DNA of 64,000 nucleotides from an uncultured Clostridia bacterium (GCA_948739805.1 CAPYID010000001.1:65856-129855); one strand, 5' to 3'. Shown: positions 26,300 to 37,735, numbered from the stretch's first letter. Numbers and translations: made by a program. Notes: generated by a model not told the origin, from the sequence alone.

Positions 26300-26357
26300 T
26301 TCTTTCAAGAATTGTAACAAAAGTCCACAGAGTAATATGTACAATAGTACTGGAGGT

Positions 26358-26994
26358 ATAATGAAAATGATAGATGAATATTATAAGAATTTTAAAGTAA
26401 GAGATTATATGAATGAAGAATCTTTAAAAAGTTGTTTATCTACAAATATAATTGATTGTTCATTAGGAACAAATCCTTTTATAGAAGAAAGTATGATAAA
26501 GCAATATATTTTAGAAGCTAGTTCGGAAATTAATAAATATCCTTCTTTAGAATATGAATTATTGAAAGAAGAATTACTTAAGTTTTGGAAAGAATATTTT
26601 TATAACAATATAAATAAGAATAATATAGCTTTTGGTGCAGGAACAATGGGAATACTAAGAAATATTTGCCAATTTTTGATTCAAGAAGGAACAAAAGTAT
26701 TAGGAATAGCGCCACAATTTCCAAGATTTATATCAGAGATAGAATTGAAAAAAGGAATATATGAATATTATAGCCTAGAAGAGAAGAATAACTATAAATT
26801 CATAGCTACAGATTTTATTGAGAAAATTGACAGTACTTATAGTTTAATATCAATAGAAAATCCTAATAATCCTACTGGACAAATAATCGATGTTAACGAT
26901 ATTGAAAAAGCCGTTAGAAAAGCAAAACAATATAATATTATGGTTATAGTAGATGAAGCATATGGCGATTATATGTCATCTACATCTTCTTATG
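26358..26994 (+). pseudogene. hisC-like class I/II aminotransferase, 5' portion (gene interrupted by mobile element at 26995)
   Basis: IDCSLGTNPF, ENPNNPTG and IVDEAYGDY motifs. Reading frame then runs into element sequence and stops (..FSKFRL*). Confidence 0.65.
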
Positions 26995-27068
26995 ACAAAA
27001 ATAAGAAAATATTGATATTTAGTAAGTTTCGCCTATAGTTTATAAATAAAAATTGGAGGTAAAAGATT

Positions 27069-27461
27069 ATGAAAAATGAAGAATTAAAGAAAGAATTTAC
27101 AGATGAAAAGACTGGAATAAGTTATACTTTAGTTGGTGACTATTATTTGCCCAACTTATATTTAGAAACAGAAGAAAAAATCACACTTAACAAATACGGA
27201 TTATTAAGGCTAGATTATTTGAAAAAGCACAAAGAAGCTGATTATATAATAATGTTTATGAATAAAGAACTCAATAAGCATTTAAAAGAAGTACAAGAAA
27301 GAACACAAGCAAGAGTAAATGAATTAGTAGAACAATTAAAGGCTAAAAGTAATTTAACAGAAGATATGAAAAATACTGATATGCTTTATTGGATTGGTAC
27401 AATGAACGCAATCAAAAATCAAGCTGAAGAAATTGTTTTAAAAGAACTGATTTATGTATGA
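27069..27461 (+). CDS. TnpV-family transposon protein
   Basis: 130 aa. SYTLVGDYYLPNL..., YGLLRLDYLKKH, and WIGTMNAIKNQAEEIVLKELIY match the TnpV family pattern. Confidence 0.6.
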   Translation: MKNEELKKEFTDEKTGISYTLVGDYYLPNLYLETEEKITLNKYGLLRLDYLKKHKEADYIIMFMNKELNKHLKEVQERTQARVNELVEQLKAKSNLTEDMKNTDMLYWIGTMNAIKNQAEEIVLKELIYV

Positions 27462-27833
27462 TAACGTTACGCTATTTTCAAATATAAATGCCTTAAAAAG
27501 CATTTTAAGACTTAATTGAATAAGAACATATTAACTACTTGTAGTTTTATAACTATGAGTAGTTTTTTATGTTCAAAAGAGAAATGAAACACCTCTTAAA
27601 AAATGTTTGATGTAATGAGAATATAGATTTGCCATAGAGCGTGGAAGTTTGAAACCGAGCAAGGTTTCATAGAGTAAGGAAAATTTATTTTTTCTTACTC
27701 TTTTTCAATAAATGCAGATATGCAGTTTATTGAAAGCCTAACAAATAGACTTGTCATTTGTTAGGAAAAATCAAAAATGCTAATAGCAATTTTGATTTTG
27801 GGTTGTAGGGTTTCCCTGCCACACAGATAAACT

Positions 27834-27863
27834 TTGTTTGTCTAGTGTGTTAGACAAGTAAAC
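27834..27863 (+). promoter_or_regulatory. oriT of MobV relaxase (pMV158-type, hairpin with TAGTGTG/TTA nick motif)
   Basis: ttgtctaGTGTGttagacaa hairpin ~35 nt upstream of the mob start, with GTGTG/TTA in the loop. Further IRs upstream (cctaacaaat...atttgttagg). Confidence 0.5.
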
Positions 27864-27895
27864 TTATTTTGAGCAAGAAAGGAGCGTTGGAGAAT

Positions 27896-29110
27896 ATGAG
27901 TTACGCTATCGTAAGAAATAAAAAATTAACACGAGCAGAAATAAATGGAAAAGGCACTCATAATGATAGAAAAGCAAAAAATCATTCTAATAAAGATATT
28001 GATCCTACTAGAACACATTTGAATTATTATATTAAGAAAAATGAGTTCACATATACAAAAGAATTTGATAAATATATAAAAGAAAATAATTTACAAGGTC
28101 ATCTTCGTAGTAATAGCATAATAATGTGTCAAATGATATTTACTTCTGATCAATCATTCTTTGATAAAATTGGAGAAAAAGAAACTAAACGATATTTTGA
28201 TGAATGTTATAAATTCATTTGTAATTATAAAAATTTAGGAGAAAAGAATATAATATCAGCAGTAGTACATCTTGATGAAGGAGCACCACACATGCACTTG
28301 ATGTTTGTTCCTGTTGTGCATACCAAAGATAAAGACGGCAATAAAATTGATAAGATTTGTGCAAGAGATTTTTGGAAAGGTAGAGATAGTTACAGAAAGC
28401 TACAAGATGCCTATTTCAATCATGTTAAGTCAAAAGGCTTTGATTTAGAAAGAGGTATGTTTATCGAAGATACTGGAAGAAAACATTATACTATTGAAGA
28501 ATATAAGAAAATTACAAATTATGAAAATACTAAAAAAGTATTGAATGATATAAAATTGGATTTGCCAAATGTTCCAAATATAAGTGATATTGGTAAATTC
28601 ACATTAAAAAGAGATGAAAAAATATTAGATGAAATTATAAAACCTAAAGATGATTTGATTAAGGAGTTATATAGAAATAACTTATCATTGCATAAAGAAT
28701 TAACAAAACAATCTAAAATTATTGATGAAGTTCAAAAATACCAAAAAGAAAGAAATTCAATAATTGCCGATAATCAAGAACTTCATAATACAGTTAAAAA
28801 TTTAGAATATGAATATAAGGAAAAGAAGAAAACTCTTGAACACGAATTTGAAGATAAATCATTTAATTTAGAATGGCAATATAAGAATAAAATTCATAAT
28901 TTAGAAAAAGAAAATAGCCACTTGAAAAAGGTTATTGATAAATTTAAGGAAACTATCTCAAAATTCATAAAATGGATATGTAAAAATTTTGATTTACTTT
29001 CTGAAGATGAGATTATTAGAGATTTTGAAAAAGAAACTCATACTTTTATTGATGCAGAAAAACAAGTCAAAAAAGAAGATAAAGAAAAAGAATGGGATTT
29101 AGAGCGATAA
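27896..29110 (+). CDS. MobV-family (Mob/Pre) relaxase
   Basis: Starts MSYAIVR. Motif III VVHLDEGAPHMHLMFVPV (HxDExTPHxH). Coiled-coil C-terminal half. AAAGGAG RBS. Confidence 0.85.
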   Translation: MSYAIVRNKKLTRAEINGKGTHNDRKAKNHSNKDIDPTRTHLNYYIKKNEFTYTKEFDKYIKENNLQGHLRSNSIIMCQMIFTSDQSFFDKIGEKETKRYFDECYKFICNYKNLGEKNIISAVVHLDEGAPHMHLMFVPVVHTKDKDGNKIDKICARDFWKGRDSYRKLQDAYFNHVKSKGFDLERGMFIEDTGRKHYTIEEYKKITNYENTKKVLNDIKLDLPNVPNISDIGKFTLKRDEKILDEIIKPKDDLIKELYRNNLSLHKELTKQSKIIDEVQKYQKERNSIIADNQELHNTVKNLEYEYKEKKKTLEHEFEDKSFNLEWQYKNKIHNLEKENSHLKKVIDKFKETISKFIKWICKNFDLLSEDEIIRDFEKETHTFIDAEKQVKKEDKEKEWDLER

Positions 29111-29115
29111 AAATA

Positions 29116-29137
29116 GACAGGGAATGCTTCCCTGCCT
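29116..29137. terminator. bidirectional stem-loop between convergent mob and ART genes
   Basis: acagggaa-tgc-ttccctg perfect hairpin. Confidence 0.45.
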
Positions 29138-29158
29138 ATCACACAAAAAAATCAGTTG

Positions 29159-30106
29159 TCACTTGTGAGTGTTTTTAGAATCCCTAATGTAATCTTTCAA
29201 CAACATAATAGCTTCTTCATAGTTATCCCTTTGAGCATACATGACTTTATCTTTATACTCCTGTATAGGGCTTTCCATTACTTTTAAAAATTCTTCTAGC
29301 AAGTTTAGTGGCTGTACATTTATTTCTAAAATAGTTGTAGTAGAATGCCTGTTATTAGGTTCTCTTTGCTTTTTTACTACCTTTTCAGAAACTACTGTAT
29401 AGTCACATGGAGGCAAAAGAATTTCATTTTCTTTATCTTTTCTCCTCTGCTCTTTAGGTCGAATAGATTTTACATCTAAACATTTTGTACCTTCGGGTAC
29501 ATGGATTTCTAACAATGTCCCTCTACTGAATTGCTTTGCAACATCATAGTTTGTAGTTGTTGATACTATCCCATTTACACCGTTTCTTTCTATGGTAGAG
29601 CATCCTCGATACAAAATAGTAGGAGATTCAATTCGAGGGGCATAGTCCAGTGCATCAGAAAACACTTTTAATTTTCTAATAAATCCTACGTCTATCGGAA
29701 AATATCCAACCTCAAGATCTTCCAGTTTTCCAAGATACCTCACCATATTCATAGAAAAGGCAAAGTCATCAAAAACATTAGGAAGAATGCCACTGATATC
29801 AAAATCAAAACCATGGAATTTATCTTCATCATAAAGAGCAAAGCTCCTTTTTCTGAAAAAGTTATTTACAAAGATTCCAGAATTTTGCTTATAACCAGCC
29901 AAAAAGGAATACAGCTCTGGCTTTAATCCATTTAACCTTTTTCGATTAATTGCCGCTTGTTGTTGTTCCAATTGACAGGCTTTCTTTTCTTCCTCTGGAA
30001 GATTTCGAATCATATCTGCTCGTATTCCAGCTAATGTGGATTTCCAATCTTGTGTGGAAGTTACATTTTTTTGAGAACTCCGTAATTGTTTTCTTTTATT
30101 ACTCAT
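29159..30106 (-). CDS. ADP-ribosyltransferase (R-S-ExE type, arginine-specific toxin-like) with N-terminal extension
   Basis: C-terminal half has ILYRG (Arg), IVSTTTN (STS-like) and KENEILLPP (ExE followed by hydrophobic residues), in the order characteristic of C2/iota/VIP2-class ARTs. RBS GAAGGAGG. Confidence 0.55.
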   Translation of the reverse strand: MSNKRKQLRSSQKNVTSTQDWKSTLAGIRADMIRNLPEEEKKACQLEQQQAAINRKRLNGLKPELYSFLAGYKQNSGIFVNNFFRKRSFALYDEDKFHGFDFDISGILPNVFDDFAFSMNMVRYLGKLEDLEVGYFPIDVGFIRKLKVFSDALDYAPRIESPTILYRGCSTIERNGVNGIVSTTTNYDVAKQFSRGTLLEIHVPEGTKCLDVKSIRPKEQRRKDKENEILLPPCDYTVVSEKVVKKQREPNNRHSTTTILEINVQPLNLLEEFLKVMESPIQEYKDKVMYAQRDNYEEAIMLLKDYIRDSKNTHK

Positions 30107-30341
30107 ATTGAGTTTACCTCCTTCTTATAAGTTGTCAATGTGCATAACTAAATTTATCTTTGTGTTACTTTTACCTCCTTTTTGAAATGAAATTGTAAAT
30201 ATACATGATTAACTGGTTATTAAACCAGAGATTAAAAAGGAAAATATGTACAAACAGTATAATAACTGTATAGGTTTATATTATATCAGATTAACGTTAA
30301 AAAGTCAAATTATGTAAATTTAAAAATGTCTATAGAAGTGT

Positions 30342-31325
30342 CTATCTTAACATTTTCCATATTCCATTTTTAGTAGATCCAACTCTTTCAATAATACCTT
30401 TTTCTTTCAGTGCTTTTATATTATATGATATTCCATCTCTTGTCAAATCAAGAATTTTAGCCATTTCAACTTGTGTAATACTTGGATTTTTTTTCATTAA
30501 ATCAATTATTTTTTCTTGTGTAGTCTTTTGTGTAGTTTCTTGTGTAGTTTCTTGTTGTTCTAAAATCATTCCATCAACTGCTTCATCAATAACTTCAAGC
30601 ATAAATTCTATAAATTCATTTGAATTACCAGCATTGTTGCAATTTTGAATTGCAGTATAATAGCCTTCTTGATGTTTTCTTATTATACTTTCTATAGGTA
30701 TATATTTAAATAACTCTTTCCAATGAGCAAGTATTGCTGTTTGCCAAAGTCTTGCTGTTCTTCCGTTTCCATCTGAAAATGGGTGTATAAATACAAATTC
30801 ATAATGGAATATAGAAGATAATATTAACGGATTAACAGTATCTTTTGCTTTATTCATCCAATTAAATAAGTTATCCATAAGTGTAGGCACCATTGTATGA
30901 GGTGGAGCCATAAAAATTTGCACATTTCCATCATAAACAGCCTCTCCGTGATTTCTAAACTTTCCACTATCATCTTCAATAGCAAAAGTTAGTATTCCTT
31001 GTATTTTCTTTAAGTCATCTACAGAATATGGATCAACATTATCAAGTTCTTCGTAAGCTTTATAGGCATTTTTGACTTCTTGAATATCTCTTTGTTCTCC
31101 AATTACAGCTTTTCCATTGATTACTGCCTCAACTTGAAATAGTGATAGTTGATTATTTTCGATAGCCAAAGAAGAATGAATTGATTTAATTCTTGTTTTT
31201 CTTCTTAATTCTGGGTATCTATTTAGACTTTCAAAATAATTAGCCTCTCCAATCTTTTCCATTATCTTTGTTGCTAGATTTAGCATTTTATCAGTAATTG
31301 TATATGGTGGGTAGTTTTCTTCCAT
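30342..31325 (-). CDS. Fic/DOC-family protein with C-terminal winged-helix domain
   Basis: Canonical Fic motif HPFSDGNGRTARL. C-terminal ...ITQVEMAKILDLTRDGISYNIKALKEKGIIERV is an HTH. Start at MEENYPP after GGAGG. Confidence 0.85.
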   Translation of the reverse strand: MEENYPPYTITDKMLNLATKIMEKIGEANYFESLNRYPELRRKTRIKSIHSSLAIENNQLSLFQVEAVINGKAVIGEQRDIQEVKNAYKAYEELDNVDPYSVDDLKKIQGILTFAIEDDSGKFRNHGEAVYDGNVQIFMAPPHTMVPTLMDNLFNWMNKAKDTVNPLILSSIFHYEFVFIHPFSDGNGRTARLWQTAILAHWKELFKYIPIESIIRKHQEGYYTAIQNCNNAGNSNEFIEFMLEVIDEAVDGMILEQQETTQETTQKTTQEKIIDLMKKNPSITQVEMAKILDLTRDGISYNIKALKEKGIIERVGSTKNGIWKMLR

Positions 31326-31370
31326 TTCAAAACCTCCAATTTTGCCACCACTGGTGGCAATTTTCATTTA

Positions 31371-32258
31371 TTATTTATTTCTTGCCCTACTTTTATAAAC
31401 ATTTTCTTGATTTTTACAACTAAATGTATCATATTCAGTTTTTGGGTTTGGTGCTGTAAATGCTTTTCCACAATGTTTACAAAGTTTCAAATATTTCTTC
31501 TCTTCAATTGCAAATAATTTAAAATCTTCATCTATGTATTCTTTTAAACTTCTTACATGTATTGTAATTCCGTTATATTCTAAATTAGTTCTAATATGAT
31601 TTGATTCTAGCTTTTCAATTAAATAATCATCTATATGTTCGCAATCTTCTTTTTTCAATTCTTTTAATATGTTATATAAAGTCTGTGCATAATTTACTAT
31701 CATATCTGCTCGTTCATAGTATTTTTCGTTTTTATAGTATAACTCGTTTAAATCTGGAGTAATAAATTTTTCCATACTATGCTGACAAATAAGTTTATTA
31801 CTTTTTTCTATCAATTCTTTTATTTCTTCTTTACTTGCTGTTGGAAAGAATATTTTAAAATAATCTAGTATGTCCATTGTATTAAAGCAATCATAATATT
31901 CTTTGCCTGTTACATTATTAAATTCTTTTAACAATACCTTTTTATCTAATGTATAATATCTATTTACTGGCAAATTATGAATTAATCCTAAAAGCCCATA
32001 TTGATTTACAAATTCTAGTAATAAACTATCAGTTTTTTCTCCATTTTCTAATGATAGTTTTCCTAAATTTATAAAATCTATTAACGGCTTATCATTTTCT
32101 TCATAATCATCAAAACTAATCACAGTATAATTTGACATATTTATAGTATTATCAATTTTAGGTACAACATATTTAATATTGTTTATAACTTTTATTTCAT
32201 ATTCTTCAAACTTCGGTAAAGACTCATTATTAAAGCCATATTCTAAATCAAATCTCAT
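31371..32258 (-). CDS. hypothetical protein with C-terminal CxxC...C zinc-ribbon-like motif
   Basis: Co-directional and contiguous with the Fic gene (4 nt gap). C-terminus ends LCKHCGKAF...FSCKNQ. Confidence 0.4.
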   Translation of the reverse strand: MRFDLEYGFNNESLPKFEEYEIKVINNIKYVVPKIDNTINMSNYTVISFDDYEENDKPLIDFINLGKLSLENGEKTDSLLLEFVNQYGLLGLIHNLPVNRYYTLDKKVLLKEFNNVTGKEYYDCFNTMDILDYFKIFFPTASKEEIKELIEKSNKLICQHSMEKFITPDLNELYYKNEKYYERADMIVNYAQTLYNILKELKKEDCEHIDDYLIEKLESNHIRTNLEYNGITIHVRSLKEYIDEDFKLFAIEEKKYLKLCKHCGKAFTAPNPKTEYDTFSCKNQENVYKSRARNK

Positions 32259-32538
32259 ATTTTTTCTCCAATCTAAAAATTTTTTCAAAAATTTCGCAGT
32301 AATATATTGACATTAGTAAAATATTACAGTATAATTTTAAATATGTAATATATTTATCAATTATAAATATTACTTTTATTTTTAAGATAATACTTAACAT
32401 CTACAAATATATTACATTAAAATATAACAAATGTCAACACATATACAAAAATAAATAGCGTTATATGGGATTTTTATGCCTAAAATAATGCAAGTAAAAA
32501 ATATTAGTACATATTTAAAGGGAAGGAGGTTTTTGACA

Positions 32539-33009
32539 TTGAATAAGAAAGATGAAATTTTGAAATTGTATTATGAAGATCATTTGAAACAACAAGATAT
32601 TGCACAAAAAGTTAAAGTTTCTCAAGGTTATGTATCGCAAGTTATAAAAACTGATAAAAGATATAATTCAAATAAAGAAACTAAACACAAATCATCTATG
32701 ATTAGAAAGGCAACTTATAATAAAGAATATTATAAAACTTATAAGCGACCTAAAAAAGATGATAATTCATATCGAGAAATGCAAGCCCAGCTTGAAAAAG
32801 ATATTGCTGAATTATCTTATTATCATAACTATAATATGTCTGATTATGATTTTGTAAAATGTAATTCAAGTGCTTATCATAGAAATAGCAAAGGTAATTT
32901 ATCATTAGTAAATGGATTAACAGTTGGGGTTGATGTTCCTAGAACGGTAAATATGAATATCAAAGTGCCAACTCAAAAGTACAAATACAAATGCTGTATG
33001 AGTTATTAA
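32539..33009 (+). CDS. HTH-domain (sigma-70 region 4-like) regulatory protein
   Basis: HTH LKQQDIAQKVKVSQGYVSQVIK. Probable TTG start 8 nt after GGAGG. An upstream ATG at 32476 is possible. Confidence 0.45.
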   Translation: MNKKDEILKLYYEDHLKQQDIAQKVKVSQGYVSQVIKTDKRYNSNKETKHKSSMIRKATYNKEYYKTYKRPKKDDNSYREMQAQLEKDIAELSYYHNYNMSDYDFVKCNSSAYHRNSKGNLSLVNGLTVGVDVPRTVNMNIKVPTQKYKYKCCMSY

Positions 33010-33080
33010 AAATTTGTTTAAGACTTCTATTTAGAGGTCTTTTTATTTTACCCAGATTGACAAAACAGGAGGAATTAGAG

Positions 33081-33215
33081 ATGAGTGAAAAATCAAAAAA
33101 GAAAAATGAAATAGTTATAATAAATAAATTCAAAGACACTGGTGCAGAAAGTGTAACAACTACACTTATAAAAGTTTTTGAAATATTTTGTAATATGCAA
33201 ATGTCTAAAAGATAA
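33081..33215 (+). CDS. small hypothetical protein (44 aa) upstream of recombinase
   Basis: CAGGAGGAATTAGAG-ATG RBS. Confidence 0.3.
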   Translation: MSEKSKKKNEIVIINKFKDTGAESVTTTLIKVFEIFCNMQMSKR

Positions 33216-33283
33216 TAAACAAAGACAGATTTTAGTTTCCATCTATATTTTTAGCTATTGATTTTTATATTAAGTTATGTTAA

Positions 33284-34891
<1,608 letters not shown>

Positions 34892-34944
34892 AAAGATGTA
34901 AACTCATTAAACAACTCAGCTATAAAACTCGTGGGCAAATATGA

Positions 34945-35386
34945 TAATATAATGGTATTAAGAAGTGCCTCAAAATTTTACGGACTGCCTAATCATAGAG
35001 TAGGTTATATGTTTGCAGACAAAGAATTAGTAAAAATATATAATGAAATTGCAATACCATTTCCATTTTCAGATTTATCCGCTAGTGTTTTTATCAAAGT
35101 TTTAAAAGACTATGATAAATTAGAATTTACAAAACAAAAAACAATAGAAGTAAATAAAAAGATATATAACGCAATAAAGAAAGAAAATTACCTTTGTACA
35201 AATATAGAAACACCAATATTTACAATAAAAACAAATAAATATGATAATTTAACTAAGCAATTGATGAAGGAGGGAATTATCGCTGAGAACTGTAGTTATT
35301 TTATAAATTTAGATAACACATATGCACGAATAAGAATTAACAAAGATTATGAACAAATAATAAAAATACTTTCAAAAATATTATAA
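34945..35386 (+). pseudogene. hisC-like aminotransferase, 3' portion (continues 26358-26994)
   Basis: NIMVLRSASKFYGLPNHRVGY contains the PLP-lysine motif of class I/II aminotransferases. No independent start/RBS. Confidence 0.65.
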
Positions 35387-36199: not shown

Positions 36200-36580
36200 A
36201 TGCCAAGTGAATTTAATAACGATATTGTTTTTGCTAGATTTATAAATTACATGAAAAAAGCATTATTACATAAAAGAATAAACTACTTAAAACATTGTAA
36301 ATTTTTAAAAGAGCAAGAACTGCAATTAGAAGATAAGGAATGGAACGTGTTGTCTAGCAAGGATAATATGGTACATTCCTTTTTTGCATTTAATGGGAAA
36401 GATGAACAAAGTATTTTAAAAATACTTACTGAAAAACAAAGACAAGTTATTACTGCAATTTACTATGAAGAAAAGACTATTGAAACTATTGCTAAAGATT
36501 TAAAACTTACACCTAATGCAATATATCAAATAAAGTTTAGGGCTATAGAAAAGTTAAATAAATATTTGAAGGGGGAATAG
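36200..36580 (+). CDS. sigma-70 region 4-like regulator (Tn916 Orf7-like)
   Basis: C-terminal HTH EEKTIETIAKDLKLTPNAIYQIKFRAIEKLNKYL (sigma r4/LuxR-like). GAGAGGAGG RBS. Confidence 0.5.
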   Translation: MPSEFNNDIVFARFINYMKKALLHKRINYLKHCKFLKEQELQLEDKEWNVLSSKDNMVHSFFAFNGKDEQSILKILTEKQRQVITAIYYEEKTIETIAKDLKLTPNAIYQIKFRAIEKLNKYLKGE

Positions 36581-36582
36581 GG

Positions 36583-36804
36583 ATGGAAAATAAAACAGAA
36601 TTTTATAAGTTATTAAATAAAGCTAAATATGATGAAAAGGCTCTGACATTAGTAATTGAACAAATAATGCCATTAATAAATAGTTATTCTTTAAAAAATA
36701 ACAAAATAGATGAAGATTTAAAAAGTGAATTAATAGAATATAGCATATTACTAATAAAATCAGAAAATTTCGCAGATAAACTAGCAAATTATAAAAAAAT
36801 TTAA
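36583..36804 (+). CDS. small regulatory protein (Tn916 Orf8-like, putative)
   Basis: 73 aa, translationally coupled (3 nt after the preceding stop) to the sigma-like gene. Confidence 0.35.
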   Translation: MENKTEFYKLLNKAKYDEKALTLVIEQIMPLINSYSLKNNKIDEDLKSELIEYSILLIKSENFADKLANYKKI

Positions 36805-37351: not shown

Positions 37352-37735
37352 ATGGAGGAAATAAAATTGGAAATAAGAAGAGAAACAAGGCAAGTATTTA
37401 GAGGAGAAATATATTATGCTAATCTTTCTGGAGCAATAGGGAGTGAACAACAAGGAACAAGACCAGTGCTTATAGTACAAAATAATACTGGAAATGTACA
37501 TTCTCCAACAGTAATGGTACTTCCTATAACTAAAAAGTTAGATATTATAAATCCACAACCAACGCATATTGATATTAAAAATTTTTGTGGATTAGATTAT
37601 GAGTGTACGATACTTGCTGAACAGATAAGAACAATAGATAAAAGCAGATTACGTGGAAAAATTGGAAACTTACCATATAAGATGATAAAAACAGTAAATG
37701 AGGCAATGCAAATTGCACAAGGAATAAAGAATTAA
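37352..37735 (+). CDS. MazF/PemK-family endoribonuclease toxin
   Basis: RGEIYYANL...GSEQQGTRPVLIVQNN...VMVLPITKK is the PemK/MazF fold signature. Alternative TTG start at 37370 after GGAGG. Confidence 0.8.
   Translation: MEEIKLEIRRETRQVFRGEIYYANLSGAIGSEQQGTRPVLIVQNNTGNVHSPTVMVLPITKKLDIINPQPTHIDIKNFCGLDYECTILAEQIRTIDKSRLRGKIGNLPYKMIKTVNEAMQIAQGIKN

Follow-up and report, generated by a model that had tools for sequence, protein, structure and literature searches.

Results

We consider it probable that the interval from 29,159 to 32,258 in a 64,000-nt window of DNA from an uncultured Clostridia bacterium forms the cargo end of a mobilisable transposon of the Tn4451 type, and that it holds three independent things rather than a three-gene system, i.e. 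the gene for a protein called P296, which belongs to the backbone of the element, a SoFic-type Fic unit, and a cassette with the gene for an ADP-ribosyltransferase (ART). The window, i.e. the whole stretch that was analysed, has a low GC content of about 25%. Open reading frame (ORF) calling recovered all three minus-strand ORFs where an initial annotation, made from the sequence alone, had placed them. These are the ART gene at 29159–30106 (315 amino acids, aa), the Fic ORF at 30342–31367 (341 aa, with a likely real start at M15, ATG 31325), and the P296 gene at 31371–32258, which encodes 295 aa plus stop from the ATG at 32258, with the ribosome-binding site (RBS) GGAG upstream of that ATG. 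The motifs named in the annotation were present as well, i.e. Y166-R-G, S182-T-T, and E226-N-E228-ILL in the ART, H195-PFSDGNGRTAR in the Fic protein, and C260-K-H-C263...C281 in the third protein. Its proposal that the three genes form one module, or that the pairing of ART and Fic is meaningful, is contradicted by co-occurrence data and by separate transcription units. The comparison loci that carry relatives are labelled L001–L115, and coordinates given with these labels are positions within the respective locus.

Co-occurrence of the ART and Fic genes

The ART was absent from all 80 metagenomic loci with Fic relatives (53–92% identity). Many of these loci had MobV relaxases nearby, and some had distant P296 homologues upstream. 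Conversely, Fic was absent from about 14 independent contexts with ART relatives of 46–91% identity. The order P296-Fic-ART was found elsewhere only in L016, a short contig with a near-identical copy, which hence provides no independent evidence. L025 has a distant ART and, at a distance of 1.6 kb, a distant Fic. Here the ART gene is located behind ffh, whereas the Fic gene (29% identity, different type) is part of a separate TnpX element. No ORF was found between the ART gene and its neighbours in the window, and when the genes located up to 3 kb from the ART in 23 loci were compared all against all, no partner common to independent loci emerged. In summary, the ART and Fic genes are very probably independent, and their pairing is an incidental juxtaposition, which is why it could not be placed in any known family.

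The mobilisable transposon and its cargo slot

The element comprises 7,901 bp (26996–34896, with one GA copy counted) and lies inside a class I/II aminotransferase gene. GA was found at both junctions (26994–5 and 34895–6), the two halves of the target gene were recognised by Pfam Aminotran_1_2 (26337–27038 and 34931–35386), and excision in silico, with 26995 joined to 34897, yielded a single uninterrupted aminotransferase ORF of 382 aa. By its gene set and its GA junctions the element is a member of the Tn4451 family, and its excision and mobilisation are predicted. The location of the three genes on a mobilisable transposon, which the initial annotation had assumed, is thus borne out, as is the non-classical nature of the cargo, which is not an antibiotic resistance gene; relatives of the transposon carry defence genes. 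A megablast search of the whole element against plasmids gave no match.

Four further backbone genes, all on the plus strand, flank the interval. They encode TnpV (27069–27461; Pfam TnpV, E 2e-33), a MobV/Pre relaxase (27869–29110; Pfam Mob_Pre, E 1.5e-44; NCBIfam MobV, 149.5 bits with a cut-off of 100), HTH177, a sigma-70 region-4-like helix-turn-helix (HTH) protein whose gene is always divergent from that of P296 (32476–33009; Pfam Sigma70_r4, E 4e-6), and a TnpX-like large serine recombinase (33335–34891; Pfam Resolvase, Recombinase, and Zn_ribbon_recom). The region between P296 and HTH177 (32259–32475) contains promoter-like sites on both strands and a 30-nt inverted repeat, I1 (32343–32372/32388–32417). 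A second inverted repeat, I2, is a palindrome with 16-nt arms (94% complementary) upstream of mobV at 27767–27799 and is, from its position alone, a candidate origin of transfer.

The same backbone was found around different cargo in L026, L027, and L028–31, with identities of 95–97% for TnpX and 86–100% for TnpV (both values hold for the sister elements L026 and L028), 86–92% for HTH177, 86–96% for P296, and 89–93% for MobV. The cargo of L028–31 consists of a PDC-S02/DUF1016 nuclease (PADLOC, E 2e-123), DUF7695, and DUF4379, while that of L026 comprises a frameshifted Fic followed by unrelated genes, without an ART. In L004/5, a module of HTH177 (56%), P296 (80%), and MobV (81%) is combined with a tyrosine integrase, and the cargo is a DUF1016 nuclease together with a Pycsar cyclase and PycTM. 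HTH177 adjoins P296 in L004, L026, L028, and L032 at 41–92% identity, and MobV, which is 81–93% identical in elements with other cargo, marks the far end. Because this HTH177-P296...MobV backbone surrounds varying cargo, the cargo slot can be defined as the region from the P296 stop to the MobV stop. The divergent HTH177-P296 pair marks the start of the variable slot, and the slot module is paired either with TnpX or with a tyrosine integrase and an Xis-like gene. The variability of the slot and its defence content were directly observed.

L026 is the sister element nearest to that of the window, with a P296 of 96% identity. Its Fic gene occupies the corresponding position (L026:9892–10932) but is split into ORFs of 84 aa and 194 aa and is frameshifted or decaying, and a gene matching the Anti-Pycsar Apyc1/metallo-beta-lactamase family is located just outside the element (17924–18619).

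P296 is a backbone gene

The initial annotation had counted the zinc-ribbon protein among the cargo. P296 is instead a backbone gene of the element, because it is kept together with HTH177, MobV, TnpV, and TnpX in copies with unlike cargo; it heads differing cargo in L004, L026, L027, L028, and L032. It belongs to a large, tight family with 480 relatives; more distant ones, with 27–37% identity, occur in L032, L086, L092, and L104. A YGLLG motif is conserved, and the C-terminus carries a zinc-ribbon-like CKHC...C...N..N motif, of which C260, C263, and C281 are invariant among the relatives. No Pfam, NCBIfam, PHROG, or PADLOC family was found for P296. Profile searches of Pfam and PDB yielded sub-threshold matches only (Zn_ribbon_recom, E 0.05–0.1; Rpb2 ribbon, E 0.31), and an AlphaFold2 (AF2) model from close homologues had a predicted local distance difference test (pLDDT) score of 44, too low for a confident fold.

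The distance between the P296 stop and the Fic start at M15 is about 45 nt and contains a GC-rich 8-bp hairpin (31342–31360, minus strand). As no T-run follows this hairpin, co-transcription of P296 and Fic is likely, and translational coupling is not likely. In this arrangement, P296 is a backbone gene divergent from the HTH gene and forms the start of a slot ending at the 3′-end of mobV, the Fic gene is the first cargo unit, probably co-transcribed with P296, and the ART gene is the second cargo unit, a self-contained cassette that moves by itself from element to element and to chromosomal sites.

A P296 homologue (82% identity, 8001–8942) was also observed in L007–L009, where it heads an operon with two paralogues resembling tryptophanyl-tRNA synthetase, Glycos_transf_3, ADH, HAD, a kinase, and a phosphoesterase. 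An additional isoleucyl-tRNA synthetase gene adjoins this operon, and RepA_N is nearby in L009. The arrangement resembles a synthetase-paralogue island, which raises the question of antibiotic self-resistance.

Promoter, leader, and terminator of the ART cassette

The ART cassette is predicted to be its own transcription unit with promoter, leader, gene, and terminator. The gap between Fic and ART has a length of 235 bp. A sigma-70-type promoter was found at 30280–30308 on the minus strand (TTGACT, 17 nt, TATAAT, with a TG extension; 11 of 12 consensus positions). The start of the transcript is predicted near 30273. The promoter is followed by a 5′-leader of about 170 nt (30107–30279, minus strand), which contains the hairpins P1 and P3, a CU-rich anti-Shine-Dalgarno (anti-SD) segment, a decoy SD motif, and an invariant ACACAAAGAUAA box. 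A terminator-like hairpin for the transcript (29109–29139, minus strand), with an 11-bp stem with one mismatch and a subsequent TTTT, was read from the sequence; the consensus scan did not report it. Promoter and leader accompany the ART gene in all copies with at least 70% identity, irrespective of the context. The copies are located at 30107–30308 (minus strand) in the window and at L013:5820–5948, L032:6520–6652, L015:5827–5950, L022:5827–5951, and L115:5821–5962.

The leader hairpins covary. Among six distinct sequences, 95.4% of the cells pair, a value that was reached by none of 500 shuffles, and double changes occur at 4 pairs (slid controls: 0). In P1, ACAGU/ACUGU is replaced by ACAGC/GCUGU. 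P3 is 100% paired, with compensatory changes at three of its six pairs, and CUGGUU-UAAU-AACCAG alternates with CUAGCU...AGCUAG, UUGGUU...AACCAA, and UGGCU...AGCCA. This covariation stems from six or seven sequences of about four lineages, and the folding z-score of the whole leader was only -0.69. P3 can alternatively be read as a DNA palindrome or operator. The CU-rich stretch pairs with the upstream decoy SD motif in the minimum free energy structure or with the true SD motif in the centroid structure. The long-range helix of the CU-rich segment and the decoy SD motif was not consistently alignable and was omitted from the covariance model. This model matched only upstream of ART genes, with one extra copy at the edge of L115, and it did not reach the leaders of ART homologues with 57–67% identity. 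The leader had no match in Rfam at E≤1 and may therefore be a new cis-regulatory RNA.

The extra copy (L115:1–97, minus strand; 42 bits, E 0.002) is a second, divergent, and truncated leader of the ART type with further compensatory hairpin variants; its gene lies beyond the fetched locus.

Fold and family of the ART

The ART is predicted to be a cytoplasmic, solo enzyme of the R-S-ExE type. Its score with Pfam PF03496 (ADPrib_exo_Tox) was 23.2 bits, just under the cut-off of 23.4. Distant relatives reach this model at E 1e-12 to 1e-13, so that the link of the ART to ADPrib_exo_Tox is transitive. Searches of PDB with the single sequence and with a 52-sequence profile revealed nothing at E≤10. 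An AF2 model built from the 52-sequence alignment (pLDDT 88.6, predicted template modelling score 0.83) has the ART fold, i.e. a split beta-sandwich with a cleft for nicotinamide adenine dinucleotide (NAD). By fold, its closest neighbours are exotoxins and secreted effectors, with the highest similarity to ARTs of the C3, Lmo0066, and Tre1 types. In the alignment, R167 is conserved in 51, S182 in 50, E226 in 50, and E228 in 51 of the 52 sequences. The fold model and the near-invariant catalytic residues, including a glutamate pair that is retained in homologues, agree with the proposal of the initial annotation that the protein is a genuine R-S-ExE enzyme.

In the model, the N-terminus is disordered and charged, and a long helical N-terminal part and a C-terminal three-helix tail (269–314) enclose a core at about residues 140–268. 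Private to the ART are about residues 1–60 and the three-helix tail. The length of about 130 aa that had been given for the N-terminal extension is overstated; in our reading, some of the helices in front of the R-strand are part of the usual C3-type fold. No signal peptide, transmembrane segment, or hydrophobic segment was found; the N-terminus is charged, and the maximal hydropathy over 19 residues was 0.93. Scans with Pfam and NCBIfam revealed no delivery or secretion-targeting domain (LXG, PAAR, Rhs, or similar). No relative was found in 2.9 million viral contigs, and BFVD gave generic ART-domain matches only. The family, with roughly 275 members, is rare and patchy: a search of 185,579 species genomes yielded 13 loci, and 1.84 billion representatives contained 29 clusters at E≤1e-30. 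Within the R-S-E superfamily, the ART forms an uncharacterised branch that has an architecture and a leader of its own, and its enzymatic activity is predicted. It would be an NAD-dependent protein modifier, and the ExE motif suggests arginine as the target.

Two relatives deviate from this layout. A homologue with 46% identity (L025:4106–4963) has YHGC instead of YRGC, i.e. His instead of the catalytic Arg, retains E-E-E at the ExE position, and may be inactive or altered. In the distant family member P0255 (521 aa), the ART core is fused to an HD phosphohydrolase domain (Pfam HD, E 7e-8).

The Fic protein

The residue numbers of the Fic protein are those of the 341-aa ORF. Its first ATG (31367) lacks an RBS, whereas the second ATG, at 31325, has GGAGG (31337–31333) seven bases upstream, and the relatives align only from residues 9–20 onward. 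Therefore, the protein probably starts at M15 and has a length of 327 aa. It is predicted to be a class II SoFic-type AMPylase composed of Fic and a winged HTH (wHTH) domain (30342–31325, minus strand; Pfam Fic, E 2e-20). The PADLOC model of SoFic was matched over its full length, with residues 20–333 corresponding to model positions 15–345 of 361 (E 7e-50). The active-site motif HxFx(D/E)GNGRxxR is present from H195 onward, and the wHTH that the initial annotation had noticed was verified as Pfam HTH_24 at residues 282–327 (E 8e-10). The inhibitory motif for which it had recommended a search was also found. S66-L-A-I-E70-N71 fits (S/T)xxxE(G/N) and is aligned with the inhibitory motif of the nearest solved structure, PDB 4rgl_A (E 4e-68). 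The description as a canonical AMPylase-type protein was thus confirmed and extended by a motif indicating auto-inhibition. By these characteristics the Fic protein is a distant branch of the known SoFic-type class II Fic-wHTH proteins. By analogy with this family, it would be an auto-inhibited AMPylase that becomes toxic upon phage infection and thereby aborts the infection.

Neighbourhoods of the ART in other genomes

The closest ART relatives are found on mobile elements or next to candidate defence genes. The copy with 84% identity (L032) is located on an integrase-type element without Fic, where it comes last among otherwise different cargo genes and is again convergent with MobV. Between these two element types, the ART is 84% identical and the MobV next to it 62%, and this higher conservation of the ART argues for a recent horizontal exchange. 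Next to the copy with 91% identity (L013), only remnants of the 3′-ends of Fic and MobV are kept, and the gene adjoins PDC-S56 (E 7e-243) and a Cthe_2314-like HEPN protein. A copy with 67% identity adjoins AAA_15/AAA_21, RloB, and YaaC genes. Among the roughly 14 independent loci, there are 3 in which ffh/rpsP lies no more than 6 kb from the ART homologue (46–77% identity; L001, L010–L012, and L025), and in two of them cotJ genes are in the vicinity. Such a frequency is above chance, but a synteny with ffh/rpsP as a general rule was rejected, because it holds in just these three loci.

Possible functions of the ART

For the ART we tentatively favour a role in defence or conflict, which is possible but somewhat short of an even chance. 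The rarity and patchy distribution of the family, its horizontal exchange, and its recurrence beside defence genes argue for such a role. The ART would be a conflict-type, NAD-dependent, and probably arginine-directed protein modifier that acts inside the producing cell in defence or abortive infection. It may be restrained at the level of expression by its leader, and at the level of the protein by its private N- and C-terminal helical parts. A more far-reaching version, which we regard as rather unlikely, would be that the cassette acts as a new anti-phage or abortive-infection system with a single gene, in which an undescribed cis-regulatory RNA gates translation by an anti-SD segment switching between decoy and real SD, and that the region from P296 to MobV is a dedicated defence slot common to mobilisable elements of gut Firmicutes with serine recombinases and with tyrosine integrases.

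Several results weigh against a defence role of the two enzymes. The ART had no match in PADLOC or PHROGs, nor in NCBIfam. Most of its relatives with 46–77% identity occur singly in housekeeping surroundings (behind polC or ffh, or near rpsP, YmdB, TrxB, FabG, or AccAD), settings that fit an endogenous function as well as defence. In addition, a toxic ART without an immunity gene requires another safety mechanism, which its leader and helical parts may provide. The Fic protein scored 66.8 bits with the SoFic equivalog model (NCBIfam NF046030), which has a cut-off of 550 bits, and with a score that far below the cut-off it is SoFic-type by architecture and not an orthologue. A search downstream of Fic revealed no small ORF similar to AS1, the antitoxin of a known SoFic, and no co-oriented ORF of at least 20 aa follows. 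Lastly, Fic-wHTH proteins are very common, and defence is not necessarily the role of all of them.

The housekeeping settings lead to the first alternative, i.e. that the ART is an endogenous regulatory enzyme of gut Firmicutes, which modifies a host protein reversibly or at a developmental stage, and of which one clade was acquired as passenger cargo. The position of the 46–77% relatives as single genes, the three loci close to ffh/rpsP, and the nearby cotJ genes are in accord with this view; the lack of an immunity partner would be expected of a non-toxic enzyme, and the conserved regulatory leader suggests controlled expression. However, such marked rarity and patchiness would be unusual for a physiological regulator, no conserved ADP-ribosylhydrolase (ARH) or macrodomain partner was found beside the ART, and the closest clade occurs repeatedly on mobile elements, beside candidate defence genes, and was recently exchanged between two element types, as the values of 84% for ART and 62% for MobV indicate. 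We therefore regard an endogenous regulator as unlikely, with about one chance in four conceded to it in our judgement.

That the ART serves the element, as an anti-defence or establishment factor acting on proteins of the recipient cell after transfer, or that it is directed outward as a released toxin similar to C3, Lmo0066, or Tre1, appears improbable. Its nearest folds are indeed exotoxins and secreted effectors, many phage ART domains share the fold, and in elements of three types the gene is located close against the mobV 3′-end. Yet the protein lacks a signal peptide, a transmembrane segment, and a delivery domain, the ARH or immunity gene that normally comes with secreted ART toxins is missing, the viral contigs contained no member, and many members are located off mobile elements altogether. 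A joint toxin-immunity or dual-modification system of ART and Fic, possibly with the zinc-ribbon protein, to which the co-orientation of two neighbouring post-translational modifiers, the gene order of L016, and the proximity in L025 might point, is very improbable in view of the lack of ART in all 80 Fic-relative loci and of Fic in about 14 ART contexts, the separate transcription units, and a P296 that heads unrelated cargo elsewhere.

Further features of the window

About 2.5 kb to the right of the element, an ORF of 127 aa was observed at 37352–37735, whose translation includes GEIYYANL...GSEQQGTRPVLIVQNN and which, from the translation alone, has the look of a PemK/MazF-type toxin. Small sigma-like ORFs are found near it (36200–36804). 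The transposon may be located inside a larger accessory region. Two RNA features are unrelated to the cargo genes, i.e. a group II intron domain (13241–13337; Rfam RF00029, 59.8 bits) and the gene for a bacterial class A RNase P RNA (60064–60417; 280 bits).

Discussion

The apparent case of two post-translational modification enzymes acting as one system resolves to ordinary modular cargo, and a false new system is thereby kept out of the catalogues. What was observed instead is a P296-headed slot in widespread Tn4451-like elements that shuttles defence genes (SoFic-type Fic, PDC-S02, and Pycsar) among gut bacteria. The ART belongs to a small, unannotated family that is invisible to sequence searches and consists of solo, cytoplasmic R-S-ExE enzymes in human and animal gut Firmicutes. 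With its catalytic residues intact and without an immunity partner, the family is a candidate for a new defence or regulatory enzyme. Its conserved leader has covarying hairpins and is absent from Rfam. For both enzymes, the activity, the targets, and a defence role in this host are what we infer from their motifs, folds, and neighbourhoods.

Comparison with known systems

The fold of the ART is shared with C3-like enzymes and A-components of binary toxins of the R-S-E type (C3bot, C3stau, iota Ia, VIP2, Certhrax, and SpvB), but sequence similarity to them is almost nil. The ART of the window lacks the signal peptide and the delivery partner, has a private charged and helical N-terminal region and a C-terminal three-helix tail, and is a cytoplasmic, solo protein from metagenome-assembled genomes of gut commensals. 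ART-ARH toxin/immunity pairs are represented by Lmo0066 of Listeria (PDB 8za7) and Tre1/Tri1 of Serratia (PDB 6drh). In contrast to these, no adjoining hydrolase or immunity gene was found in about 14 contexts of the ART, and a secretion-associated domain is missing. Precedents for ARTs as effectors of abortive infection are CmdT of CmdTAC and DarT of DarTG (PMC11618068; PMC9967889). These act on mRNA or DNA together with antitoxin or chaperone partners, whereas the ART of the window has no such partner, and a sequence relationship to CmdT or DarT was not detected, as no PADLOC model matched.

SoFic was reported to be a single-gene, stand-alone anti-phage defence (10.1101/2022.05.11.491447). 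The enzyme is described as an AMPylase of class II with N-terminal auto-inhibition; the version of E. coli H397 is accompanied by a downstream antitoxin of 47 aa, AS1 (PMC12249575). The Fic protein of the window resembles SoFic in its N-terminal alpha-inh motif SxxxEN, its HPFxDGNGRxxR motif, its C-terminal wHTH, and its full-length PADLOC match. It differs in that the SoFic proteins of Shewanella and E. coli are only its distant kin (PDB 3eqx/9tc4, E 7e-11), and in that AS1, which is found downstream in E. coli H397 (PMC12249575), has no counterpart downstream of its gene.

The element as a whole can be compared with the Tn4451/Tn4453 family, to which Tn6104–6106 of C. difficile also belong. 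Elements with TnpX are characterised by a 2-bp target, GA (PMC3158075). Common to the family and to the element of the window are a TnpX-type large serine recombinase, TnpV, a Mob/Pre relaxase, the GA target of 2 bp, and a target site that is restored exactly (PMC3158075). The element differs from the family in three respects. Its cargo consists of defence/conflict genes and not of catP, it has HTH177 and P296 as an additional conserved backbone pair, and its cargo-slot module is also found with a tyrosine integrase replacing TnpX.

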